A stretch of 39,604 nt of DNA from a virus (Duplodnaviria; Caudoviricetes): the IMG/VR virus record IMGVR_UViG_3300042339_000036, positions 1-39,604 of that record; one strand, given 5' to 3'. Under the pieces are notes generated by a model. It did no database searches. It was not told the origin of the DNA and saw only the letters and a list, made by a program, of their open reading frames with translations. The position numbers and the translations under genes were made by a program. Of the stretch, positions 5,898 to 25,227 are shown one piece after another (positions within the stretch are counted from its first letter, which is position 1; each line of letters starts with the position of its first letter).

Positions 5898-6121
5898 GCC
5901 TATACACAGACCTGGTCGAGGCAGGCATCGAGGTCAGCAACTGGCAGTCGGACTTGTATTTCCCGGTGTCGTATGAGTCCATGGAAATCTTGGCCAAGTA
6001 CCCAACACAGTCGCGCTCAATCTTCAAATCAAACATCGATGGCCGTCCGACAGTCGAGGCGCCGTTCGCATTTGATCCGTACTGGGAATCAAAAGTTGTT
6101 GACACAGCGTCAACGAAATAG
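5894..6121 (+). CDS. Hypothetical protein
   Basis: GGAG RBS; ATGA overlap. Confidence 0.7.
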   Translation: MSLYTDLVEAGIEVSNWQSDLYFPVSYESMEILAKYPTQSRSIFKSNIDGRPTVEAPFAFDPYWESKVVDTASTK

Positions 6122-6337: not shown

Positions 6338-6597
6338 AGCGCAACAGCTACATCGCCGAGATCGAGCACCGCGTGTGCGGCATCCCTTGCATCGTCGGCG
6401 TCACCGATTACGAGGGCTACTCGCCAGCGTATACCTCTGGCTTACCTGAGAACTGCTACCCGGCAGAAGGTGGGTCAGGGGACTTTGAGATCCTGGACCG
6501 CAAAGGCTACCGCGCCAAGTGGCTTGAGAAAAAACTCACAGCGCGAGATGAGGACGCGATCCAGGAATTGATTTATGAACACATGGAGAATAATTGA
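6334..6597 (+). CDS. Hypothetical phage protein
   Basis: PENCYPAEGG..FEILDRKGYRAKWLEKKL; coupled overlaps. Confidence 0.7.
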   Translation: MKRNSYIAEIEHRVCGIPCIVGVTDYEGYSPAYTSGLPENCYPAEGGSGDFEILDRKGYRAKWLEKKLTARDEDAIQELIYEHMENN

Positions 6598-15897: not shown

Positions 15898-18800
15898 TTA
15901 CTGTCTCGACGATTCACTTGCTTTGCCAGTGGCAAGGCCGCGAATGTAGTCGGCAGAAGAGGTTGGTTCAATCTTCCCGCGCTCGACTTCAATGGCATAA
16001 CCAATAGGTCTGCCGAGCACGGTAACGGGGATGCCGGTCACAAGGCTGATCAATGTCAGGATGTCTCGGACATTCTTGCCCGTCACATCCTTGTCAGGAT
16101 CTGCAATGTTGATACCGGCTTTTACTACACCGATGGTCGCACCTTCCAGCGTCGATACAGACGGGCTGGTGGTCATGCGGTCATCGTATGGCTTGTTGTT
16201 GAAGGCGTTGAATGGCACGATTGCCGCAGAGCCAAACGGCACCAGGGCAACAGCACCACGCAATTGTGACCCAAGGAACCAACTCATGAAGACATCGAGG
16301 TAGCCGTCGTCATCATCGTCGTCCCAGCCGCCACCCAGACTGCGCACGATGGCGTCAGCGGCCAGCATTGGCAAGCCAAAGCCGAGCAGGTAGGTCATGA
16401 ACAGCTTGCCCTTGTGGCCACGCCATCCAAGGTCACGGAAGATCTTGATGTACTCGTTGGCGTTCAGGTTGGCCATCATGTTGAAGTAGCCATAGAACTG
16501 AATCAGCGTCTTGTAGAACGGCGATCCGACTTCAAAGGCAGACAAGTCTTCAGGCAACAAGCTAGATTGCGTCATACGCACTGCGGCGTCTGCTCGCTTG
16601 ATTGCCTCATTGCTTGCTGACTTTTCATCAACATTGGCGCCAAGATCTGTGACGGTTTGGTTGTACGCGCCAACCCAGGTCACGATGTCCACAAAGTTTT
16701 GGAAAGCCTGTTGCAAAAAGTAGCCATGCTTGTTGGACCACTTCTGGATCTTGTCAAACTTCGTTGGGTTGATCAGCAGGTCATTCATCATGTCCTGCAC
16801 TTCGATCATCTGATTGCTCATGCGGTCAGCCATGAACGGCGACAACTCAGCAACAAACTCAGCTTGCGCTGTTGGACTCTTCATGTAGTCGACCAGGGCC
16901 GTCTTCATGTACTTGCCTTCAACCTTGAGCAATGCAGGGAAGAAACCAGTCACCTGTTGCAATGCGTTGGTGATGTTGGCAAACATGATGCCGATACCAG
17001 TGCGAGTGCGAACAGCACGCCAGAAGTTGTCGACGCTTCGGTTCATGCCGACCTCGCTCGTGATCTGGCGAGCAGATCGATTGAGCCATGGCAAGATCAT
17101 GTCCTCGATCACAGTCGGATCGATTCGGGTGATCGTGTCTGCAAAGTCACGCTTGCGAATGATCTTGAGTGTGTCGCGGATCGTAGGCTGTACGCGTGCA
17201 AAGCGAATCACATCATCGATGTGCTTGGCCATCACGCGGATGTCCAAAGATAGAGGCTTGTTGTATTCGACGCGAGACTTCGTAAACCCGGCGCCAGTGC
17301 TTGGCATCGAGTTCCGGAAGTCGGACTCGAGTTCCTCCATCTTCATTTGACGCTGTGCGTCGCGAACTATGAACGGGTCAGTCTTCGCCGGAACATAGCC
17401 ACCACGGTATGTGCCAAACGGTGTAACCACAGGTCGCGATTCGACTTCCTTAAAATAGTAGCCGAAAATCTCGCGATGCGCCTCTTGCGCCATAGGCTTG
17501 AGTTCTTCATTTAGATCCCATACAGCTTGCACAAAGTCGAAGTCTGCTTTGGTCAGCACGCCTTCGTCGATCATGCGGTTCATAAAACTATTCCAGCGCG
17601 TCGTGTCGACAGAGCCGTCTTCATTGATCTGCCCCCAGCCACGGCCAGCAATTAATTTCTTCATGTTGCTGTCGTTGCCAATGTGCATCAATGCACCAAG
17701 CACCTCTGCTTTACCGATGCCACCGTTCTCATTGCCGAATGTGTAGTTCAGTTCAGGTGCAGTGATCTTTTGCACTGGCAGGTCCAGCTTGCCGATCATG
17801 TCCACATAGTCTTTGACATAGCGGTTGCGATCGACGCGGTACTGGTCAAGAGCCGCACGCAGTGGGCGCCAGATGTAATTGGTGAATGGACCAGGGCCAC
17901 CAGGGCCGTCTGTTGCGTCAGCCCAGTGCTCGACCTTGCGGGTCAATGCCTTGGCGTTGTACAAAGCGCGGATGGCTTTTTCTTTTGGACCAGGCGCCAT
18001 GCGTTCACCGGCAACCTCTTCAGGCACACCGATCTCGTCAAGTCGCGCATTCAGTTCGGCAATGATCGAATCAAGAGCAACTGCTTTGCCCTCAATCATC
18101 ACTTCGTTTTCACGCTTGGACTGGTACCACAGCGCATCGACAATTTCCTTCATCTGACGGAATTCGTTGAGCGTGAGTTTTTTGTAGTTGCGCGGGCCAC
18201 CAGTTGACTCAAGCAAGATCGGCTCGATGTCTGCGTACAGGTCTGGGTTGTAGGACTTGAGTTGCTCCACAAACTTTGCTGGGTCGACATCACGCGGGCC
18301 AAGGCCGTAGTGGCCAAGGATGTAGCGTGCGGCGTTGACCAGGTCAATGTTGCGGTTCTTGGCCATCTTCGCATCGGCCTTAAAGATCTTGGCAAAGCTA
18401 TCAATAGCCTTGTCAATTTCCTTGCGTGCGTTGACTGCCTCGAGCGACAACTGATTGTTCAGCAATTGATTCTGTTTGGCCTTTGCGGCTTCAGTAGTTT
18501 TGCCAGCCTTTGATGCCTTGATGCTTTCTTTCGATGCGCGGGCTTCTGCCAGCGTGTAGTCACGCGGACGGATCTCGCTGATTACCTTGTTGCCAATGAT
18601 TGATTTGGCCGCAGTCTTTGCGGCTTGAATCATCAAGCGTGCAGGCTGTGTTGCCTTGGCCAGGTAGCGCAACTCGACGGCCACAAAGCGGGCGCGTGCT
18701 TCGTTGTGCAATGCCTTTTGGATTTCCAACTCAATGCTGGCAGGGTCCATTAAGTCAGAGAATTCAGCCATCATGCGTTCATCAGTGCGGCCATCAATCT

Positions 18801-21800
18801 CTTCTTTGATTGGCTTGGCCTCGAGCAATGAGCGGACCAACTGGTCGCCAGAATCAAAGCCAAACATCGATGCCACCAGGTCAGGCGGCAAACCGTCTTC
18901 AGCCAGCATGCCGTACTTGCCATAACCAAGTTTGGTCAGGTCAGGCGCAGGTGTCAGCGACTCTTTGCTTTCTGGGTACAGCGCTTTGACATCGGCGATT
19001 TTGAGTTTGTGGCCAGTCAGCGCTTGTATGTCTTGGCCGTTTTCATCTTTGGTGATGCCGCGCTTCAAGAATTCCATGGCCAGGTAGACGCGGTCCTCTT
19101 GAACCTCTGCGGCCACTTCTTCGCGCACGCCCTTGCGGGTGTCGGCAGTCTTTGCCTGCATCTCTTTGAGTACGCGAGAACGAGCATTGCCCAGCCACTT
19201 CAATTGGCGCAGGCTTGCCTGTGTCAACTCCGTAATTGATGCCTCTGTAGCTTCAGCCATCATTGCCTGGTAAGCGGCCCACTCTTCGTTAGGCATGCCG
19301 GACTCTTCTTGGCTCTGGTACATCGGCACCATGCTGTTGACTGCTTCGGACTGCTTGATCTGCTCTTCGCTGGCCAGCATCCGGTCCATAACCTGGCGGA
19401 CTTCGCCGGTCAGGATTGGCAGGTCTTCGCCGTTTTCTTGGCGATAGATCTGATTGAGTTCGTCGCGAATCGATTTGTAGACGCGGCGCAACCAGGCGCT
19501 AAATCGCTCAAACATCGATTGCATTTGCAGGCTTGGTGCTTTGCCTTCAAACAAATAGATTTCGTAGTTGTATGCCCATGACTCGTGGTACTTGCGTTGC
19601 TCATCAAGAGACAGCGCGTTCCAGGTGGCCAGGTCTTTGATGCCAAACCAATCAAGAATGGTCTGCATGTCTTCTTTGTTTTGCGCGGTCGCGTCTGGCC
19701 GTGCGGCCATGTCAGCGTAAACCGTCAGGAAGAAGTGGGCAGTCTCATGCAGGAAGGTGGACATATCCGCCTTCTCGTTGAGGATTGTGGTCAATCGTTT
19801 CGGATCGAACCCACCGCGTTCTGGTTGACGGAATATTTGAGCCTGCGCCGCTGGCGGGAAAAACTTGGCTATAGCTTCAGCATCGGCATCGTCAAAAGTC
19901 AGCGTGCCAGAGCGCAGGTCAGCGGATGGTGCCGCCGCCTTGATTTGAGCCTCCTGGGCCTCGAATTTACGGATCTCAGGGGTGAGCATCGCGTACTTGC
20001 GTTTGGTGCTTGCAGGCGTCGTATAGGCGCCCTGTGATGGCATTGAGTGCATGCCATGCTGTTCGACTGGCACCTTGGTGTGTGTTGGCCCCAAAAGCAC
20101 AGCAACGCCCTGGTCACCGCCAGCGCCTGGGATGTAGACGCCATCGAACCCGGCATCAATGATTGCGGCCTCTACATCGTTGAACCATTTACCTGCGTCG
20201 TCACGGCCACCGGTTGATGCTTGGGCACGGATGCCCAGCGGGTCAGCCGACGCGTCGTAAAGGTTGTCCAAGTAAATGGCGTGGACATTACCGCCAACGC
20301 CAGCCTCTGGCCTGATGCCATTGCCGGTGTCGACATAGAAGTGAACTCGGTTGGCCAGGCGAGGATCTCCACCTGCCAAGCGGCCAGCTTCAGCGCCTTT
20401 TAAGCCTGTGTCGTAGGCGAATCCGGTAAGACTGCTTCGAGGTTCTTTTGAATAGTGGATACCAAGGACTGAAGTTGCTCCATCCCTGGCTGTCCCGTAT
20501 CGCTGGGTAACATCGAGATCGCTTGCTCGTAGGCGTTGAACGCCGCCTGCTCCGGTTCCTGATTGGGCAAAGACTGCGGGTTTTCCATTATCTTCTCTCC
20601 TTTTTTTGTTGCGCTTTACAGCGCGGTTTTGATCTGCAACAGCGTCGTCATAGGTCTTGGACTTCTTGCCGTCGCTGATCTTGTGCCAACCGTAGTACGA
20701 CTGGTCCAAGGCCATAAAGACAACATTCGGCTCGCCGTTGTTGAAGTCTTTAAATGCTTCCTTGCTCCAGCCTTCTGGCGCCTGGGTGTTATCCCAGGGT
20801 AAACGCGAAGCCGCAACAAATCCATGCGCGGCGTAGAACTCAGGCAGGATCGTCTCAAATGCATCCAGCTTGGTACCACCTGCGGCCACGGCCAACTCCA
20901 TGACAGAGCGGCCAGCGCCAGCCTGCGAGAACACTGAGACGATGTCGCCGTCAGGTTTGACTGCCACACCGGACAGGCCGTCTTCAGCCAAGAACAGGCG
21001 CATGCCTTGGTATTCCTCGACTGGGTAGACGAAGACAGCCGCGCCCATGTCGCCACTGGCTTGCTTGCTGGCCGTGATGGATTCAGAGAATCGTTGTGCA
21101 TTCTGTGCGTTGCCTTGCTCCAACTCGTAGAACTTGGGCACCTTGATACCGTTGTTGCGGTACACGCGGGCCAGGCCTGCGCCTGCTTTCCATTCTTGAG
21201 AGTAGGTGACAAGTTGGCTTTTTAGAACCCGAACTTTTCCGCCATCTCCACTGCTTTTTGCCGTGTAAGACCAGGATTGTTTTTGATCGCCGCTTCGATT
21301 GGATCTTGCAATTCTGGTTGCGACTGCGCCTGCAAAGAGCCGTTTTTCTCTTTGAGTAAAGCCTCCAGCTTCTGCTTGCTCCCCTCCAGCGACCTGCGCT
21401 TGCTCATCTTGTAATCGTGTTCGTCTTGCGCGTTCATCTTTAGACTCCTTCTTCAATGCATTGTTGATCTTGCGATCGGAAACACCCAAGGTACGCGCAA
21501 CACCTGCGGCGGCGTTGGCGTAGTCTGGGGCATCTTCATCACTATACCCGTCTGTTGACTCTTGGTCAACATTATTGTCCTTGGCTGATTCGTAGAGTCT
21601 TTTCTCTGCGTACCAGAGCACGGCTTGCAAATCGGCCATGGTCAGGTCAGCATAGGCTGGATCAGCCTGCAACTCAGCCAGGATCTGGGCAAAGACAGAG
21701 CGGATGTAGGTGCGCTCGTGAGGGCCAGCCGGTGCTTCCTTTTGGCCGTCGTTGTACTTGGCCAGGCTGTTTCCCGCCTTGCGGACTTCCTCGCCGACCT

Positions 21801-24800
21801 TGGACTCGTTCATCTGCTCGCGCAGTTTGGGGTCCATGGAGGCCTTCTGAATGGCATCAGCCAGGCGATTGACCTCGGTGTTGGCAATGTCCAACCCAAT
21901 AACTTTAGACAGGGCTGTAGCCTGTTCTGGGGTTGCGCTACGGATCGCTGAGTTCAGGCGGTTGGTTGCCGTTTCCACATGCTTGGGCAGGCTCTTAATG
22001 AGCGTGCCGGTCCACCGGCCCCAAGTGCGGACCAGCCAGCGGTCCATCGTCAGGGAAGTGAAATCGCCATACAGGTTGGAGAAAAAGCCGTTGCCGATCT
22101 TTGGACCAATGATGGCCGCGCCCTTGACCGTAGTGTCTGCGTGCTCACCGCCTGGCTTGAGGTCTTTGCTGATTGCGCTGATCTCGCCCACGGTGAAGTT
22201 GGTTTGCATGAACTGGCGCAAGTTCTTGATGCCCCAGGCTCCGACCAATTCGTTGAACAGGGCAAGCGAATCATTGATCGCGCCCTGGGCCTGGCCACCT
22301 TTGATGTTGGTGGGCATGACCTTGTTTTCTTTGTAGTAGCTGTACGCCTTCTCAGCCAGTTCAAAGTTCTTGTCGACCTTCAAGCCGTTGGATGTGACGG
22401 CCAGCGCCCAGGTGAATGCAAAGCGTGCGTCTTCGTTGGTTGCAATCTCTGGGTGGACCAGCGCCATGACGGCCAGCGCCTGGCGTGTCTTTTCGTCGTA
22501 CCAGCCGATTGCGTTGGGGTTTTGCTCAAGCGCAAACAATGCGTCCTTGACGCCCACGCGCACCAGGTAGTCAGTAGTCTGTGGAGACGGCACTGACACA
22601 TCGACACCGGCCTCAGTCGCGGCCTGTTGCACTGCGGTCTGGATGGCCAGCTTGAGGTCACGACCTTTGTTCCACACCTGGCTTTTGGCCACCTCGAGCG
22701 CGTTCTTGAGTTCGGCCTGGTCTTCGACAGCCTCGGGGATGTCAGCTTGCGCCTCGATCGCGGCCACATCGTCAGCCTCCGCATCCTCTTCGGAATTGAT
22801 TGCATCAGCGTCGGTCAAGGATTCAGTCTGCAACACTTGTCGACCTTGGCGCAGGATGTCTGCATTCTCACGCGACCAAGTGCCATCGTTAAATGGCGAC
22901 TTGACTGCGGCATTGTCAAACACGACGATCTCGCGTGCATCGGGCGCGACCTCCATGATCACGCCATCGTAGCCCTGGGCTTGCAGTTCAGCAGTAAATG
23001 CATCAGCGGCTTCGCGACCACCAGCACGAATGCGAGTCTTGTCCTCCATGGTGGCCATGTAAGGGTTCTCGAGTCGAGCATACAGCGGCATGACATTCTC
23101 ACCAGCAGTGCCGGTGCGGCGCTTTTGCATGGCATATATTTCGGCCATGTCGGCGCTGTCAGTCAGGTACACACCAGTGCCAAGCCATCCGCTGTCTTTG
23201 CGGTTTGGATTGTCAAGGTCAAACGCGGTCACATTGTCTGCGGTGCCGTGGTAAAGCGTTTGTGGTCTGCCGCTTTCGTCTTGAAAAATAGACGAGCCAA
23301 ACCAGTTGCGGAATGGCACGCTGTCAGTGATCACGCGCTGGTCTTGATTGAACAGCGCCATGCCACCAGGCTGGCCTTCTGCTCGCTCGACGCGGTACAT
23401 GTAGCGGTTGTAGAACTCTGTCGGCATGATCTTGAGTGCCGCTGATTGGGTCACCACAAAGTCACGCACAAGTTGTGCATTGATTCGTGCCGCGTTGTCG
23501 GTGTACTGCTTGGTCGCTTTGACCTGTTGGTACATCAGATTCTCAACCTCACGCGCAGACTTCACAAAGTCCTTGTTGGTCATCTCGACTTTGGCGTTGG
23601 CCTCCATCTGAGTCTTCATGATCTCAGCCTGGTTGTCGATAAACTCGCGTGCCTCGCGGCGTGTCATCATCTCACCTTCAATGCGCAAGTCGTCAATCAG
23701 CGCGGTGCTGAACTCGGTCGGTGCAATGTTGGTTTGGTACTCGGTCACAGGGATGGCAATGTCGCCACCAGTTGCAATGGCTGTGTCAAGTTGCTCGCGC
23801 ACGGATGGCGATACTTCAGCCACACGCTCGGCCAATCCAGATTGCTTGAGCGTTTCGCCGCTGATGTAAACCGTGGTGACATCAGTCTCTTGCGATACTT
23901 GACCGATCCAATCATTAAATGTTTCTGCACTGCGTGCGCGTACTTTGCTGGCGCGGGAAAACTCTTGCACCTTTTCAAATGCTTTGGCACTGCGTTCGGC
24001 AGACTCAGCTTGCAACATGGTGCCGCGATAGTTGCCAGGCACCTCGACCAATGCGGTTGGGATCTCTGCGAATGCCTCGAGCAAAATCTCACCTGGCTTA
24101 AACTCATCGGTCAACGCTTGGGCTGTTGCTTCACCAGCGGCGCCGCCTGCGGCCTGCACAGCGCCTTCACCAACCACACGAGTGCCAACACTCAACACAG
24201 TAGGGCGTGCGCCTTTAAGTAATTTGCCAGCTATGCCAGCAGTCAATGCGTCAAACAATGCAATTGGCACACCGCGCTTAATTCCTTTTTCGCGTGCTTC
24301 ATTCATTATTTTTTCATCAGTAAGCACACGGTAAAGCGCGTCTGATGTGTTTATTTTTTCGGCTTGAGATGTAATAACCTCATCCATCGTAGTTGCATAT
24401 TCGATCAAAAAACTTGTCGTACCTGCGGCAGTAGCCACAGCCAATGGACCCATAGGAATTGAAGCGGCAGTAACTGCTAGGCCTGGTGCGCCGACACCAA
24501 TCGATTCAAAAATAACTTCTTTGACTGCGGCAGGGTTGCGAATGATTGCAGAAAAACCTTCGCTAAAATTTGTAGCTTCGCCAATTTCTTGAAGACCGCG
24601 CTGAATATTTTCAGGGACAGGAAATTTTTCAACACCTCGTTGGTAATTGTCGAGACTAATTTTTTGCTGAATTTTTGGATCGTATGTGATGCCGTTGGCT
24701 TCAGCCGCCGCTCTTTGTTGATTTTGCAATCCCTTAATTATTGGGGTGTCTGCAAGACCTAATGCAAACGCTTTTTTAAATTTTGCGTAGCCACGCTGAA

Positions 24801-25227
24801 GTGGTTCAGTAATCTCGTCTAGGAATGACCGCTCAATCGGTTTGATCGTGCCGTATTCACGCTCGATGCCAGCCAGGTTAGTAGAGTCGTCGTGTGAAAT
24901 CTTGGCGTTGTTTGGATTGCTTAACCACTGGCCAAGCAACGGCGAGCGCTTGAGCGTTTCGTCGAACTCATTGAGTTGCACAGTGCGGTTGACCTGCGCG
25001 TAGTTGCGCTGGACGATGTCGACAGGTACGCCAGACTTGTTTGATAAATTCTTTGCGCGTGCGGCTTCATCCGGATTGGAATCGAGAGCGCCATACAGGC
25101 TGGTGCGCAGTTGCGTGCGCTGGCCATCGATTACATTGGCGGCGGCTTCATCAAGTGTCGGTGCTTTTTTTACACCAGCAACTCGTTGGGCGGCGGCATC
25201 AAATTCATCATCAGGTACTAGCATCAT
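15898..25227 (-). CDS. Giant polyvalent internal virion (ejection) protein: ADP-ribosyltransferase-like, HhH-glycosylase-like, GNAT-like, second ART-like and HExxH metallopeptidase domains
   Basis: T7 gp16-equivalent position; FRNWFG..YHGT..GVYLT..GYDGV..EIVVF (about 22850-23320); GWY..GPKIG..TMDRW..QAVLWY (about 21590-22520); KPDGDIVSVFS..KLDAF..FYAAHGF (about 20640-21100); HYS..HFY..GFDGVY (about 20090-20470); HETAH at 19735-19749. Confidence 0.85.
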   Translation of the reverse strand: MMLVPDDEFDAAAQRVAGVKKAPTLDEAAANVIDGQRTQLRTSLYGALDSNPDEAARAKNLSNKSGVPVDIVQRNYAQVNRTVQLNEFDETLKRSPLLGQWLSNPNNAKISHDDSTNLAGIEREYGTIKPIERSFLDEITEPLQRGYAKFKKAFALGLADTPIIKGLQNQQRAAAEANGITYDPKIQQKISLDNYQRGVEKFPVPENIQRGLQEIGEATNFSEGFSAIIRNPAAVKEVIFESIGVGAPGLAVTAASIPMGPLAVATAAGTTSFLIEYATTMDEVITSQAEKINTSDALYRVLTDEKIMNEAREKGIKRGVPIALFDALTAGIAGKLLKGARPTVLSVGTRVVGEGAVQAAGGAAGEATAQALTDEFKPGEILLEAFAEIPTALVEVPGNYRGTMLQAESAERSAKAFEKVQEFSRASKVRARSAETFNDWIGQVSQETDVTTVYISGETLKQSGLAERVAEVSPSVREQLDTAIATGGDIAIPVTEYQTNIAPTEFSTALIDDLRIEGEMMTRREAREFIDNQAEIMKTQMEANAKVEMTNKDFVKSAREVENLMYQQVKATKQYTDNAARINAQLVRDFVVTQSAALKIMPTEFYNRYMYRVERAEGQPGGMALFNQDQRVITDSVPFRNWFGSSIFQDESGRPQTLYHGTADNVTAFDLDNPNRKDSGWLGTGVYLTDSADMAEIYAMQKRRTGTAGENVMPLYARLENPYMATMEDKTRIRAGGREAADAFTAELQAQGYDGVIMEVAPDAREIVVFDNAAVKSPFNDGTWSRENADILRQGRQVLQTESLTDADAINSEEDAEADDVAAIEAQADIPEAVEDQAELKNALEVAKSQVWNKGRDLKLAIQTAVQQAATEAGVDVSVPSPQTTDYLVRVGVKDALFALEQNPNAIGWYDEKTRQALAVMALVHPEIATNEDARFAFTWALAVTSNGLKVDKNFELAEKAYSYYKENKVMPTNIKGGQAQGAINDSLALFNELVGAWGIKNLRQFMQTNFTVGEISAISKDLKPGGEHADTTVKGAAIIGPKIGNGFFSNLYGDFTSLTMDRWLVRTWGRWTGTLIKSLPKHVETATNRLNSAIRSATPEQATALSKVIGLDIANTEVNRLADAIQKASMDPKLREQMNESKVGEEVRKAGNSLAKYNDGQKEAPAGPHERTYIRSVFAQILAELQADPAYADLTMADLQAVLWYAEKRLYESAKDNNVDQESTDGYSDEDAPDYANAAAGVARTLGVSDRKINNALKKESKDERARRTRLQDEQAQVAGGEQAEAGGFTQREKRLFAGAVATRIARSNRSGDQKQSWSYTAKSSGDGGKVRVLKSQLVTYSQEWKAGAGLARVYRNNGIKVPKFYELEQGNAQNAQRFSESITASKQASGDMGAAVFVYPVEEYQGMRLFLAEDGLSGVAVKPDGDIVSVFSQAGAGRSVMELAVAAGGTKLDAFETILPEFYAAHGFVAASRLPWDNTQAPEGWSKEAFKDFNNGEPNVVFMALDQSYYGWHKISDGKKSKTYDDAVADQNRAVKRNKKRREDNGKPAVFAQSGTGAGGVQRLRASDLDVTQRYGTARDGATSVLGIHYSKEPRSSLTGFAYDTGLKGAEAGRLAGGDPRLANRVHFYVDTGNGIRPEAGVGGNVHAIYLDNLYDASADPLGIRAQASTGGRDDAGKWFNDVEAAIIDAGFDGVYIPGAGGDQGVAVLLGPTHTKVPVEQHGMHSMPSQGAYTTPASTKRKYAMLTPEIRKFEAQEAQIKAAAPSADLRSGTLTFDDADAEAIAKFFPPAAQAQIFRQPERGGFDPKRLTTILNEKADMSTFLHETAHFFLTVYADMAARPDATAQNKEDMQTILDWFGIKDLATWNALSLDEQRKYHESWAYNYEIYLFEGKAPSLQMQSMFERFSAWLRRVYKSIRDELNQIYRQENGEDLPILTGEVRQVMDRMLASEEQIKQSEAVNSMVPMYQSQEESGMPNEEWAAYQAMMAEATEASITELTQASLRQLKWLGNARSRVLKEMQAKTADTRKGVREEVAAEVQEDRVYLAMEFLKRGITKDENGQDIQALTGHKLKIADVKALYPESKESLTPAPDLTKLGYGKYGMLAEDGLPPDLVASMFGFDSGDQLVRSLLEAKPIKEEIDGRTDERMMAEFSDLMDPASIELEIQKALHNEARARFVAVELRYLAKATQPARLMIQAAKTAAKSIIGNKVISEIRPRDYTLAEARASKESIKASKAGKTTEAAKAKQNQLLNNQLSLEAVNARKEIDKAIDSFAKIFKADAKMAKNRNIDLVNAARYILGHYGLGPRDVDPAKFVEQLKSYNPDLYADIEPILLESTGGPRNYKKLTLNEFRQMKEIVDALWYQSKRENEVMIEGKAVALDSIIAELNARLDEIGVPEEVAGERMAPGPKEKAIRALYNAKALTRKVEHWADATDGPGGPGPFTNYIWRPLRAALDQYRVDRNRYVKDYVDMIGKLDLPVQKITAPELNYTFGNENGGIGKAEVLGALMHIGNDSNMKKLIAGRGWGQINEDGSVDTTRWNSFMNRMIDEGVLTKADFDFVQAVWDLNEELKPMAQEAHREIFGYYFKEVESRPVVTPFGTYRGGYVPAKTDPFIVRDAQRQMKMEELESDFRNSMPSTGAGFTKSRVEYNKPLSLDIRVMAKHIDDVIRFARVQPTIRDTLKIIRKRDFADTITRIDPTVIEDMILPWLNRSARQITSEVGMNRSVDNFWRAVRTRTGIGIMFANITNALQQVTGFFPALLKVEGKYMKTALVDYMKSPTAQAEFVAELSPFMADRMSNQMIEVQDMMNDLLINPTKFDKIQKWSNKHGYFLQQAFQNFVDIVTWVGAYNQTVTDLGANVDEKSASNEAIKRADAAVRMTQSSLLPEDLSAFEVGSPFYKTLIQFYGYFNMMANLNANEYIKIFRDLGWRGHKGKLFMTYLLGFGLPMLAADAIVRSLGGGWDDDDDDGYLDVFMSWFLGSQLRGAVALVPFGSAAIVPFNAFNNKPYDDRMTTSPSVSTLEGATIGVVKAGINIADPDKDVTGKNVRDILTLISLVTGIPVTVLGRPIGYAIEVERGKIEPTSSADYIRGLATGKASESSRQ
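20400..20588 (-). CDS. Nested +1-frame small protein B (62 aa) inside the giant gene
   Basis: AAGGAG-agaagata-ATG; helical E/Q/L-rich composition unlike the P/R/S/W-rich shadow ORFs; starts in an inter-domain linker. Confidence 0.55.
   Translation of the reverse strand: MENPQSLPNQEPEQAAFNAYEQAISMLPSDTGQPGMEQLQSLVSTIQKNLEAVLPDSPTTQA
21222..21437 (-). CDS. Nested +1-frame small protein A (71 aa) inside the giant gene
   Basis: AAGGAG-tctaaag-ATG; amphipathic C-terminal DPIEAAIKNNPGLTRQKAVEMAEKFGF; occupies an inter-domain linker. Confidence 0.6.
   Translation of the reverse strand: MNAQDEHDYKMSKRRSLEGSKQKLEALLKEKNGSLQAQSQPELQDPIEAAIKNNPGLTRQKAVEMAEKFGF

Follow-up and report, generated by a model that had tools for sequence, protein, structure and literature searches.

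A conserved out-of-frame gene nested in a giant phage protein, with a probable role as inhibitor of the neighbouring GNAT acetyltransferase domain

In this study, a nested gene, here called A, was found in the +1 frame of the gene for a giant polyvalent phage protein, just upstream of the stretch that encodes a GNAT acetyltransferase domain. We are practically certain that A is a real, conserved and unannotated gene. Its product is probably the cognate inhibitor of the neighbouring GNAT, silencing this effector in the producing cell, and in the same reading hosts and satellite-like elements have captured A.

Genomic setting

The window, i.e. the whole stretch of DNA analysed, is a whole virus record of 39.6 kb (Caudoviricetes), whose minus strand carries the terminase, head-tail adaptor, major head and tail genes according to the window annotation. 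The host gene of A lies on the same strand at 15898..25227, within the virion gene cluster, in which an internal virion protein gene, the giant gene and the tail fibre genes follow one another. It encodes 3109 aa with domain matches to LPD22 (E 1.1e-22) and ART-PolyVal (E 2.2e-19), and with these LPD/PolyVal domains and its structural gene neighbours it is polyvalent as Iyer et al. 2017 (PMC5512222) use the term.

Two main-frame domains surround A. Downstream, at 20593..21222 on the minus strand, a domain matching phrog_2563 was modelled with a pLDDT of 94.8, and its predicted model has the GNAT fold: the best VIA-align match reached Z 10.4 (rmsd 3.0, 130 aligned residues) with acetyltransferases in 50 of 50 rows, and the best Foldseek match had E 1.9e-3. 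Upstream, at 21583..22515 on the same strand, lies a domain that a weak profile match relates to DUF7178, and which we presume, on weak support, to be HhH-like. A DUF7178 match was obtained for 1 of 18 members (E 0.0034), DUF7178 made up 11% of the top Atlas cluster, the PDB gave no match, and comparison with a Streptomyces phage 'glycosylase' revealed no similarity.

Limnohabitans phage DC33 was the closest cultured relative found, with a GNAT 94% and an A 80% identical to those of the window; its record annotates the giant gene alone at this place, and its copy of A is unannotated. It infects the Limnohabitans-labelled genus in which free copies of A occur. According to the accessible part of its description, DC33 is a short-tailed phage; its record, PQ492659.1 (L115), is filed under Inoviridae, while that part of the paper describes a tailed dsDNA phage (PMC12195039).

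Start site of A and selection on its frame

Gene A is located at 21222..21437 on the minus strand and overlaps residues 1264-1336 of the giant protein; the frame, the length of 71 aa and the C-terminus are as the earlier note had read them, and the main-frame residues that it quoted opposite A are also correct. A Shine-Dalgarno site, AAGGAG, stands at 21445..21450 on the minus strand, 7 nt 5' of the ATG, and among the +1 and +2 ORFs of the giant gene only A and a second nested gene, B, combine such a six-base match with an ATG. The median anti-Shine-Dalgarno pairing was -6.3 kcal/mol at A starts as against -2.1 kcal/mol at other +1 ATGs (27 vs 1222 sites, P=6e-8), and some AT-rich members of A are without this site.

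Among 23 unique close relatives, main-frame third positions were variable in 30 of 72 codons of the overlap, compared with 94 of 120 and 96 of 120 codons in the two flanks, the +1-frame pN/pS, which was 1.91 and 2.34 in the flanks, fell to 0.63 in the overlap, and a +1 stop inside the overlap was found in none (0/23). This suppression of third-position change, together with the pN/pS of A in its own frame, the missing stops and the Shine-Dalgarno pairing, makes A more than a chance reading frame. The main frame opposite A, which the earlier note had described as looking unstructured, is constrained in the close relatives (pN/pS 0.32), but it is free in 29 nested copies from distant loci, in whose last 27 codons pN/pS was 0.50 in the A frame and 1.25 in the main frame. 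Distant comparisons overall, with the weak matches L151 and L152 omitted, gave 0.38-0.50 for the A frame against 1.21-1.25 for the main frame. Contigs from RNA runs (24 runs listed, 4 compared) gave patchy cover and were uninformative on expression.

The A family and its structure

A word search returned 26 homologues of A, and a profile search 162 clusters at 50% identity, nearly all of them short proteins ending at the motif. With homologues in this number and selection in the A frame, neither a lack of relatives nor conservation of the main frame alone, the two outcomes that the earlier note had held to speak against the gene, was observed. Its guess that A belongs to a small family with free-standing members was right about the free-standing copies and wrong about the size.

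Three elements of A are conserved. The first is an N-terminal DAQxxHD helix (residues 1-12, 21402..21437, minus strand), which tracks the upstream HhH-like domain and not the GNAT; the second is a middle LEALL..K helix (residues 21-38, 21324..21377, minus strand), outside the predicted GNAT interface; and the third is a C-terminal DPI..AM..[NH]PGLTRE.A.EMA..FGF unit, built as helix-PGLT-helix-GF (residues 45-71 and the stop, 21222..21305, minus strand), which is the predicted GNAT interface. The C-terminal end reads G[FYWLG] in 127 of the 150 A matches listed, and in 121 aligned members L57 is conserved at 94%, T58 at 93%, G70 at 99% and F71 at 89%. Some members carry the C-terminal unit in duplicate or fused to other small modules.

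The AlphaFold2 model of A (pLDDT 81.5, pTM 0.35) is all-helical, with helices at residues 3-12, 21-38, 46-53 and 59-68, no strand and no compact core, and such a model would fit a peptide that folds on its partner. Searches with A gave no family match in Pfam and PHROGs, nothing significant in the PDB profile search (best E 0.48), no significant fold match by Foldseek (best E 6.1) or VIA-align (best Z 3.4), and unnamed small viral clusters only in the ESM Atlas (0.90 and below); a HypK row from Foldseek (E 8.6) was not counted as evidence of a relative, and a search scan with a diverse A alignment displayed no pattern. Any known family was matched by at most one of the 121 members, and the modelled C-terminal unit is a two-helix hairpin only. 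The helix-turn-helix-like tail and the coiled-coil-like helix before it, as the earlier note had described them, therefore survive as secondary structure, but a DNA-binding helix-turn-helix found no evidence in the 121 members or the fold searches; an RHH/DUF1778 domain was likewise absent from the 121 members.

Linkage of A to the GNAT and to the upstream domain

Matches of A neighbour the GNAT, which lies 3' of A, and the HhH-like domain upstream, as the earlier note had suggested. From the GNAT side, 80 loci fetched by the GNAT alone were grouped into 22 clusters at 80% identity, and the 450 nt upstream were scanned with an A profile made from library proteins only, without the tested loci. 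A was detected in the +1 frame at 14 bits or more in 14 of these 22 clusters, with other frames at no more than 4.8 bits, control windows at no more than 2.6 bits and one borderline locus (L109) at 5.9. The profile found no match in the remaining 8 clusters, nor at the free-standing GNAT genes of one Streptomyces and one Pseudomonas phage, nor at a MuF-GNAT fusion, so the GNAT family does not always need A. Conversely, each of the 10 viral loci fetched by A alone shows the nested arrangement, and its GNAT comes 47-74 nt beyond the stop of A. In 29 of 29 nested copies this stop has a fixed place just 5' of the GNAT, and one ORF (L126) harbors two A+GNAT modules.

From the upstream side, 18 clusters were fetched by the DUF7178-like domain, 3 of 72 loci with partial matches and the deletion variant L227 being left out. 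The C-terminal unit of A was present in 9 of 14 such clusters with a GNAT and in 0 of 4 without one, counts which share ancestry, as do all A-GNAT co-occurrence counts here, and are not phylogenetically independent. The unit also occurs in 7 of 14 GNAT loci that have no detectable HhH-like domain upstream. Five of the 14 HhH-anchored clusters with a GNAT gave no match to the unit, and four of these five carry a look-alike that has diverged and does not end in GF. L250, L264, L265, L267 and L099 have +1 ORFs of divergent sequence before the GNAT, which end in helix-G[MF]S.EEA-helix, lack the GF and are possibly a second A subfamily. The tail of A was also considered as a partner of the upstream domain and rejected, as it occurs in none of the four HhH-like clusters without a GNAT.

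The N-terminal motif of A behaves differently from the tail. Where an upstream domain lies close to the GNAT, the motif reached 5 bits or more in 17 of 17 loci; where that domain is distant or absent, it did so in 0 of 4 and 0 of 14 loci, respectively (L091 borderline at 4.5 bits). ORFs of the DAQ type without the tail follow the upstream domain in L258, L262 and L263, and more weakly in L260. These four loci display a nested family, here F, with the motif AQ[DE][EQ]ADEDL, which resembles the N-terminal motif of A and is without the GNAT-binding tail.

Several loci depart from the common arrangement. In L086 and L088, near position 5935, the main frame stops at the usual stop of A, A is extended by 10 residues and the GNAT is split from the giant protein, which is either a real variant or an assembly error. 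In L227 and in protein P0128, a deletion or frameshift joins the DUF7178-like domain in frame to A. In L114 and L116 (Microbacterium phage Barnstormer gene 4), MuF-like minor capsid proteins have the GNAT as their C-terminal domain and no A, and a 64-aa gene directly downstream of the MuF-GNAT in L114 is a candidate conventional immunity gene. Solo GNAT genes were observed in L117 (Streptomyces phage Triumph) and L118 (Pseudomonas phage Alpheus), and 165 Streptomyces phage records match the solo GNAT; one such gene lies two genes from a 'glycosylase' and another upstream of an RNA polymerase gene.

Predicted A-GNAT complex

The complex prediction for the GNAT with A passed with a score of 0.82, compared with 0.00 for the best of 3 controls. 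The mark applied is reached by 116 of 157 solved pairs and by 2 of 215 mismatched pairs, counts that are approximate with custom alignments. The runs agree in at least 64% of contacts with a partner pLDDT of at least 51, the pLDDT of A within the complex being only 51-59. Confident contacts of A are confined to residues 44-71, which are placed on GNAT residues 98-105, 124-132, 159-160, 56-62 and 179-182, and the predicted interface includes residues that are among the most conserved of A (L57, T58, G70 and F71), with G70 and F71 in contact with G104 of the GNAT. The predicted contact surface at GNAT residues 98-132 (20827..20931, minus strand) is formed by the Gly-rich loop that follows strand 4 together with the LPEFY helix; in line with established GNAT anatomy, we take the loop (98-105) to bind the pyrophosphate of CoA and the helix (124-132) to line the pantetheine channel.

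The prediction supports a direct binding of A to the GNAT. PDB searches found no comparable complex, so a recall of a known complex by the predictor is possible but not evident. Compared by eye, the interface residues did not differ clearly between GNATs with A and those without it. The notion of A as a substrate of the GNAT was dropped, since K68 is not conserved (the majority residue being Ala, 39%).

Free-standing copies of A

Among the A loci from metagenomes (24) and MAGs (9), 31 of 33 are not nested; the two nested ones are L133 and L153, the latter being a 39-kb contig with a full giant gene in a MAG labelled Klebsiella, and possibly a mis-binned phage. No GNAT was found at the 31 free-standing loci, 24 of which offer at least 500 nt of downstream sequence, and in 30 of the 31 the old main frame does not stay open beyond 610 nt upstream. 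Stops of the old main frame fall inside the span of A in 17 of 28 unique free copies, as against 0 of 29 nested ones, and the free copies are under selection in the A frame (pN/pS 0.38). In five of them (L134, L140, L141, L144 and L145), 15-20 codons after the stop of A resemble the N-terminus of the GNAT, and these remnants suggest that the free copies may have been captured from the nested state. The GNAT was detected in 0 of 8 MAGs with free A, where a positive control was detected, and in the Limnohabitans-labelled genus A occurs in 4 of 139 genomes and the GNAT in 0 of 139; the MAGs and genomes in both counts are incomplete.

The neighbours of free A were scanned through 51 ORFs from 16 loci. 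Primase or helicase genes typical of satellite-like elements were noticed at 6 of the 16 and BREX, EVE-HNH or Cas3 genes beside A at 3 of the 16, while tRNA genes lay nearby at 4 of 17 loci. Small families without a known counterpart (DDPIY, CK.GDLA.IV, RDYT..GARF and L.NLP.DP) recur beside free A, some of them fused to A or to each other (L129-L132, L136, L137, L139, L140, L146, L147, L150, L158 and L159), and are candidates for further captured antidotes; the DDPIY and CK.GDLA families were not nested in any giant ORF among L001-L161. The gene after A in L159 is a fusion; to the eye, its second half is similar to nested gene B, and as a protein query this fusion gave 3 matches.

Other nested genes in giant proteins

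Gene B (20400..20588, minus strand, 62 aa, +1 frame) has its own AAGGAG at 20597-20602 and lies 5' of the next main-frame domain (20011..20499, minus strand), which carries an H-Y-S motif that we read as ART-like. Segments resembling B stand in the +1 frame before the H-Y-S domain in 5 of 5 distant loci in which another domain lies upstream (among L191-L196; judged by eye, two with early stops). The earlier note had ranked A as the stronger of the two nested genes, and A is indeed the better documented, but B is conserved too and has a partner domain of its own. A third nested family, here C, with an ETE..G motif in the +1 frame, lies just 5' of a domain that we take to be zincin-like (L097 at 6425-6590, L101, L106, L260 and L262). 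Other nested families pair with other domains. No nested ORF was seen after the GNAT where other domains come next, and long +1 ORFs are common in the giant gene, e.g. one of 198 aa at 20616-21212.

We put forward only tentatively, at less than even chances, that each enzyme domain of giant injected phage proteins has its own out-of-frame antidote, and that bacteria and satellites reuse these antidotes as anti-phage defence. The antidote of the GNAT would be the tail of A, that of the DUF7178-like domain the head of A or family F, that of the ART-like domain B and that of the zincin-like domain C. Bacteria and satellites of phages would excise the antidotes, build arrays and fusions of them, and disarm the virion enzymes ejected into the cell.

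Proposed role of A and alternative explanations

As an inhibitor, A would cover the acetyl-CoA site with its C-terminal hairpin and terminal Gly-Phe and so block cofactor binding; its free C-terminus would extend to the pyrophosphate-binding loop, and this would account for the stop being fixed after GF. A would be translated from the late mRNA of the giant protein, keeping the acetyltransferase quiet in the cell that builds virions. To judge from the gene context and the available part of Iyer et al. 2017 (PMC5512222), the giant protein would then be packaged and ejected without A, and activity of the enzyme would be limited to the newly infected cell. Orphan A in bacteria and satellite-like elements may be captured immunity against the incoming enzyme. 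The N-terminal helix may, with less to recommend it, serve the upstream domain likewise, which would make A a two-headed antidote.

The predicted contact would look the same if A assisted the GNAT instead of blocking it, and we consider it unlikely, though worth weighing, that A binds the GNAT as a folding or packaging chaperone or as an activator of the giant protein. The complex prediction shows contact only, A is co-encoded with the giant protein, and two further conserved helices lie beyond the GNAT interface, all in keeping with a chaperone; the predicted surface is nevertheless the cofactor site, a chaperone role would leave unexplained why free copies are under selection in genomes where no GNAT was found, and the GNAT also exists without A.

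Just as unlikely, in our estimate, is that A acts by itself as an effector on a host target or as a superinfection-exclusion factor, its link to the GNAT being due to shared cassette ancestry. That free copies are under selection without a GNAT, that many of them sit in mobile elements with primase or helicase genes (6 of the 16 loci scanned), and that HhH-A-GNAT may be inherited as a block would all be expected of such an effector. Against this, the C-terminal unit accompanies the GNAT also when the upstream domain differs, and again in the duplicated module, the complex prediction passed against controls, and other domains have nested genes of their own.

That 29 of 29 nested copies stop just short of the GNAT, and that the main frame stops at the usual stop of A in L086 and L088, could alternatively point to a cis-acting translational device, either a coupling or frameshift ORF that yields a separate GNAT or an A-GNAT fusion, or a tuner of ribosome traffic. 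This is improbable, since a slippery heptamer near the stop and a main-frame ATG or GTG within -12 to +33 nt were each found in 0 of 29 copies, conservation is seen in amino-acid motifs whose third codon positions are free, and free copies are maintained with no GNAT downstream. Lastly, that A is a mere shadow of main-frame constraint, as the constrained main frame in close relatives (pN/pS 0.32) and the abundance of long +1 ORFs in the giant gene might suggest, is largely refuted and very nearly excluded by the third-position suppression, the Shine-Dalgarno enrichment, the distant pN/pS values (0.38-0.50 vs 1.21-1.25) and the intact A where the main frame is broken.

Implications

Polyvalent virion proteins are thought to deliver host-modifying enzymes, and how such late-made enzymes are handled in the producing cell is not addressed in the part of PMC5512222 available to us. 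If the inhibitor reading is true, one nested inhibitor per domain would be the way in which a phage spares its own factory late in infection, and would account for the shuffling of effector modules within one ORF with their control preserved. The nested genes are a layer missed by annotation, as in the unannotated copy of DC33, and residues 44-71 of A constitute a 28-residue candidate GNAT inhibitor. Nested antidotes also suggest a new source of anti-phage genes; the free-standing bacterial copies of A may blunt the phage. With the cultured pair of DC33 and Limnohabitans DCL3, and also with E. coli, the model is open to direct testing.

Comparison with known systems

The host gene agrees with the polyvalent proteins described in the accessible part of Iyer et al. 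(PMC5512222) in being multidomain, lying in a virion cluster and combining LPD22 with ART-PolyVal. The same part reports that the phage GNAT family neighbours an ART domain and has solo members in Firmicutes and Actinobacteria (PMC5512222), and solo GNATs were seen in this study too; overlap, nested genes, immunity proteins and cognate inhibitors are not mentioned in what is accessible of its main text.

GNAT enzymes are also the toxins of the GNAT-RHH type II toxin-antitoxin systems AtaRT, TacAT and KacAT, and AtaR is described, in the part of the source consulted, as neutralising AtaT by its C-terminal region, which disturbs the alignment of acetyl-CoA (PMC7758455). A resembles AtaR-type antitoxins, so far as these are described there, as a small protein encoded just upstream of a GNAT, nested in the case of A and not a separate cistron, and its C-terminal unit is likewise predicted on the CoA site. 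It differs from them in having no RHH/DUF1778 domain and in lying inside the gene of its partner in another frame, and the GNAT here is a domain of a 3109-aa protein, with toxicity that is putative.

In the Rpn genes-within-genes, an antitoxin is made from an internal start, RpnS being the C-terminal domain of RpnL (Zhong et al. 2023, PMC10327210, as far as accessible). The likeness lies in an inhibitor, predicted in the case of A, that is translated from a start inside the gene of the protein which it blocks. Unlike RpnS as there described, A is out of frame (+1), unrelated to its partner in sequence and phage-encoded, and it is accompanied by other nested genes that are linked to domains of their own. 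A belongs to neither the AtaR nor the Rpn family.

The Rz1 gene of phage lambda is embedded in Rz in the +1 frame, and its product binds Rz as a structural lipoprotein partner in lysis. A shares with it the position in the +1 frame of a larger phage gene and, as predicted, the binding to the product of the host gene; Rz1 is a lysis lipoprotein and not an enzyme inhibitor, and A has no visible lipoprotein or membrane features.

In polymorphic toxin systems, including MuF toxins, immunity genes are normally separate and downstream of the C-terminal toxin. In the giant gene, by contrast, the small gene overprints the stretch upstream of an enzyme that is itself an internal domain, and the cell targeted is the host of the phage. 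No report of these nested genes was found in the literature searched, which covered main texts and few subscription papers, and within this literature A would represent the effector-immunity theme in a new arrangement. Orphan copies of A without the enzyme are found among genomes that are incomplete. By analogy, A would share with such pairs a delivered enzyme with a small cognate neutraliser, and orphan neutralisers clustered in mobile DNA.
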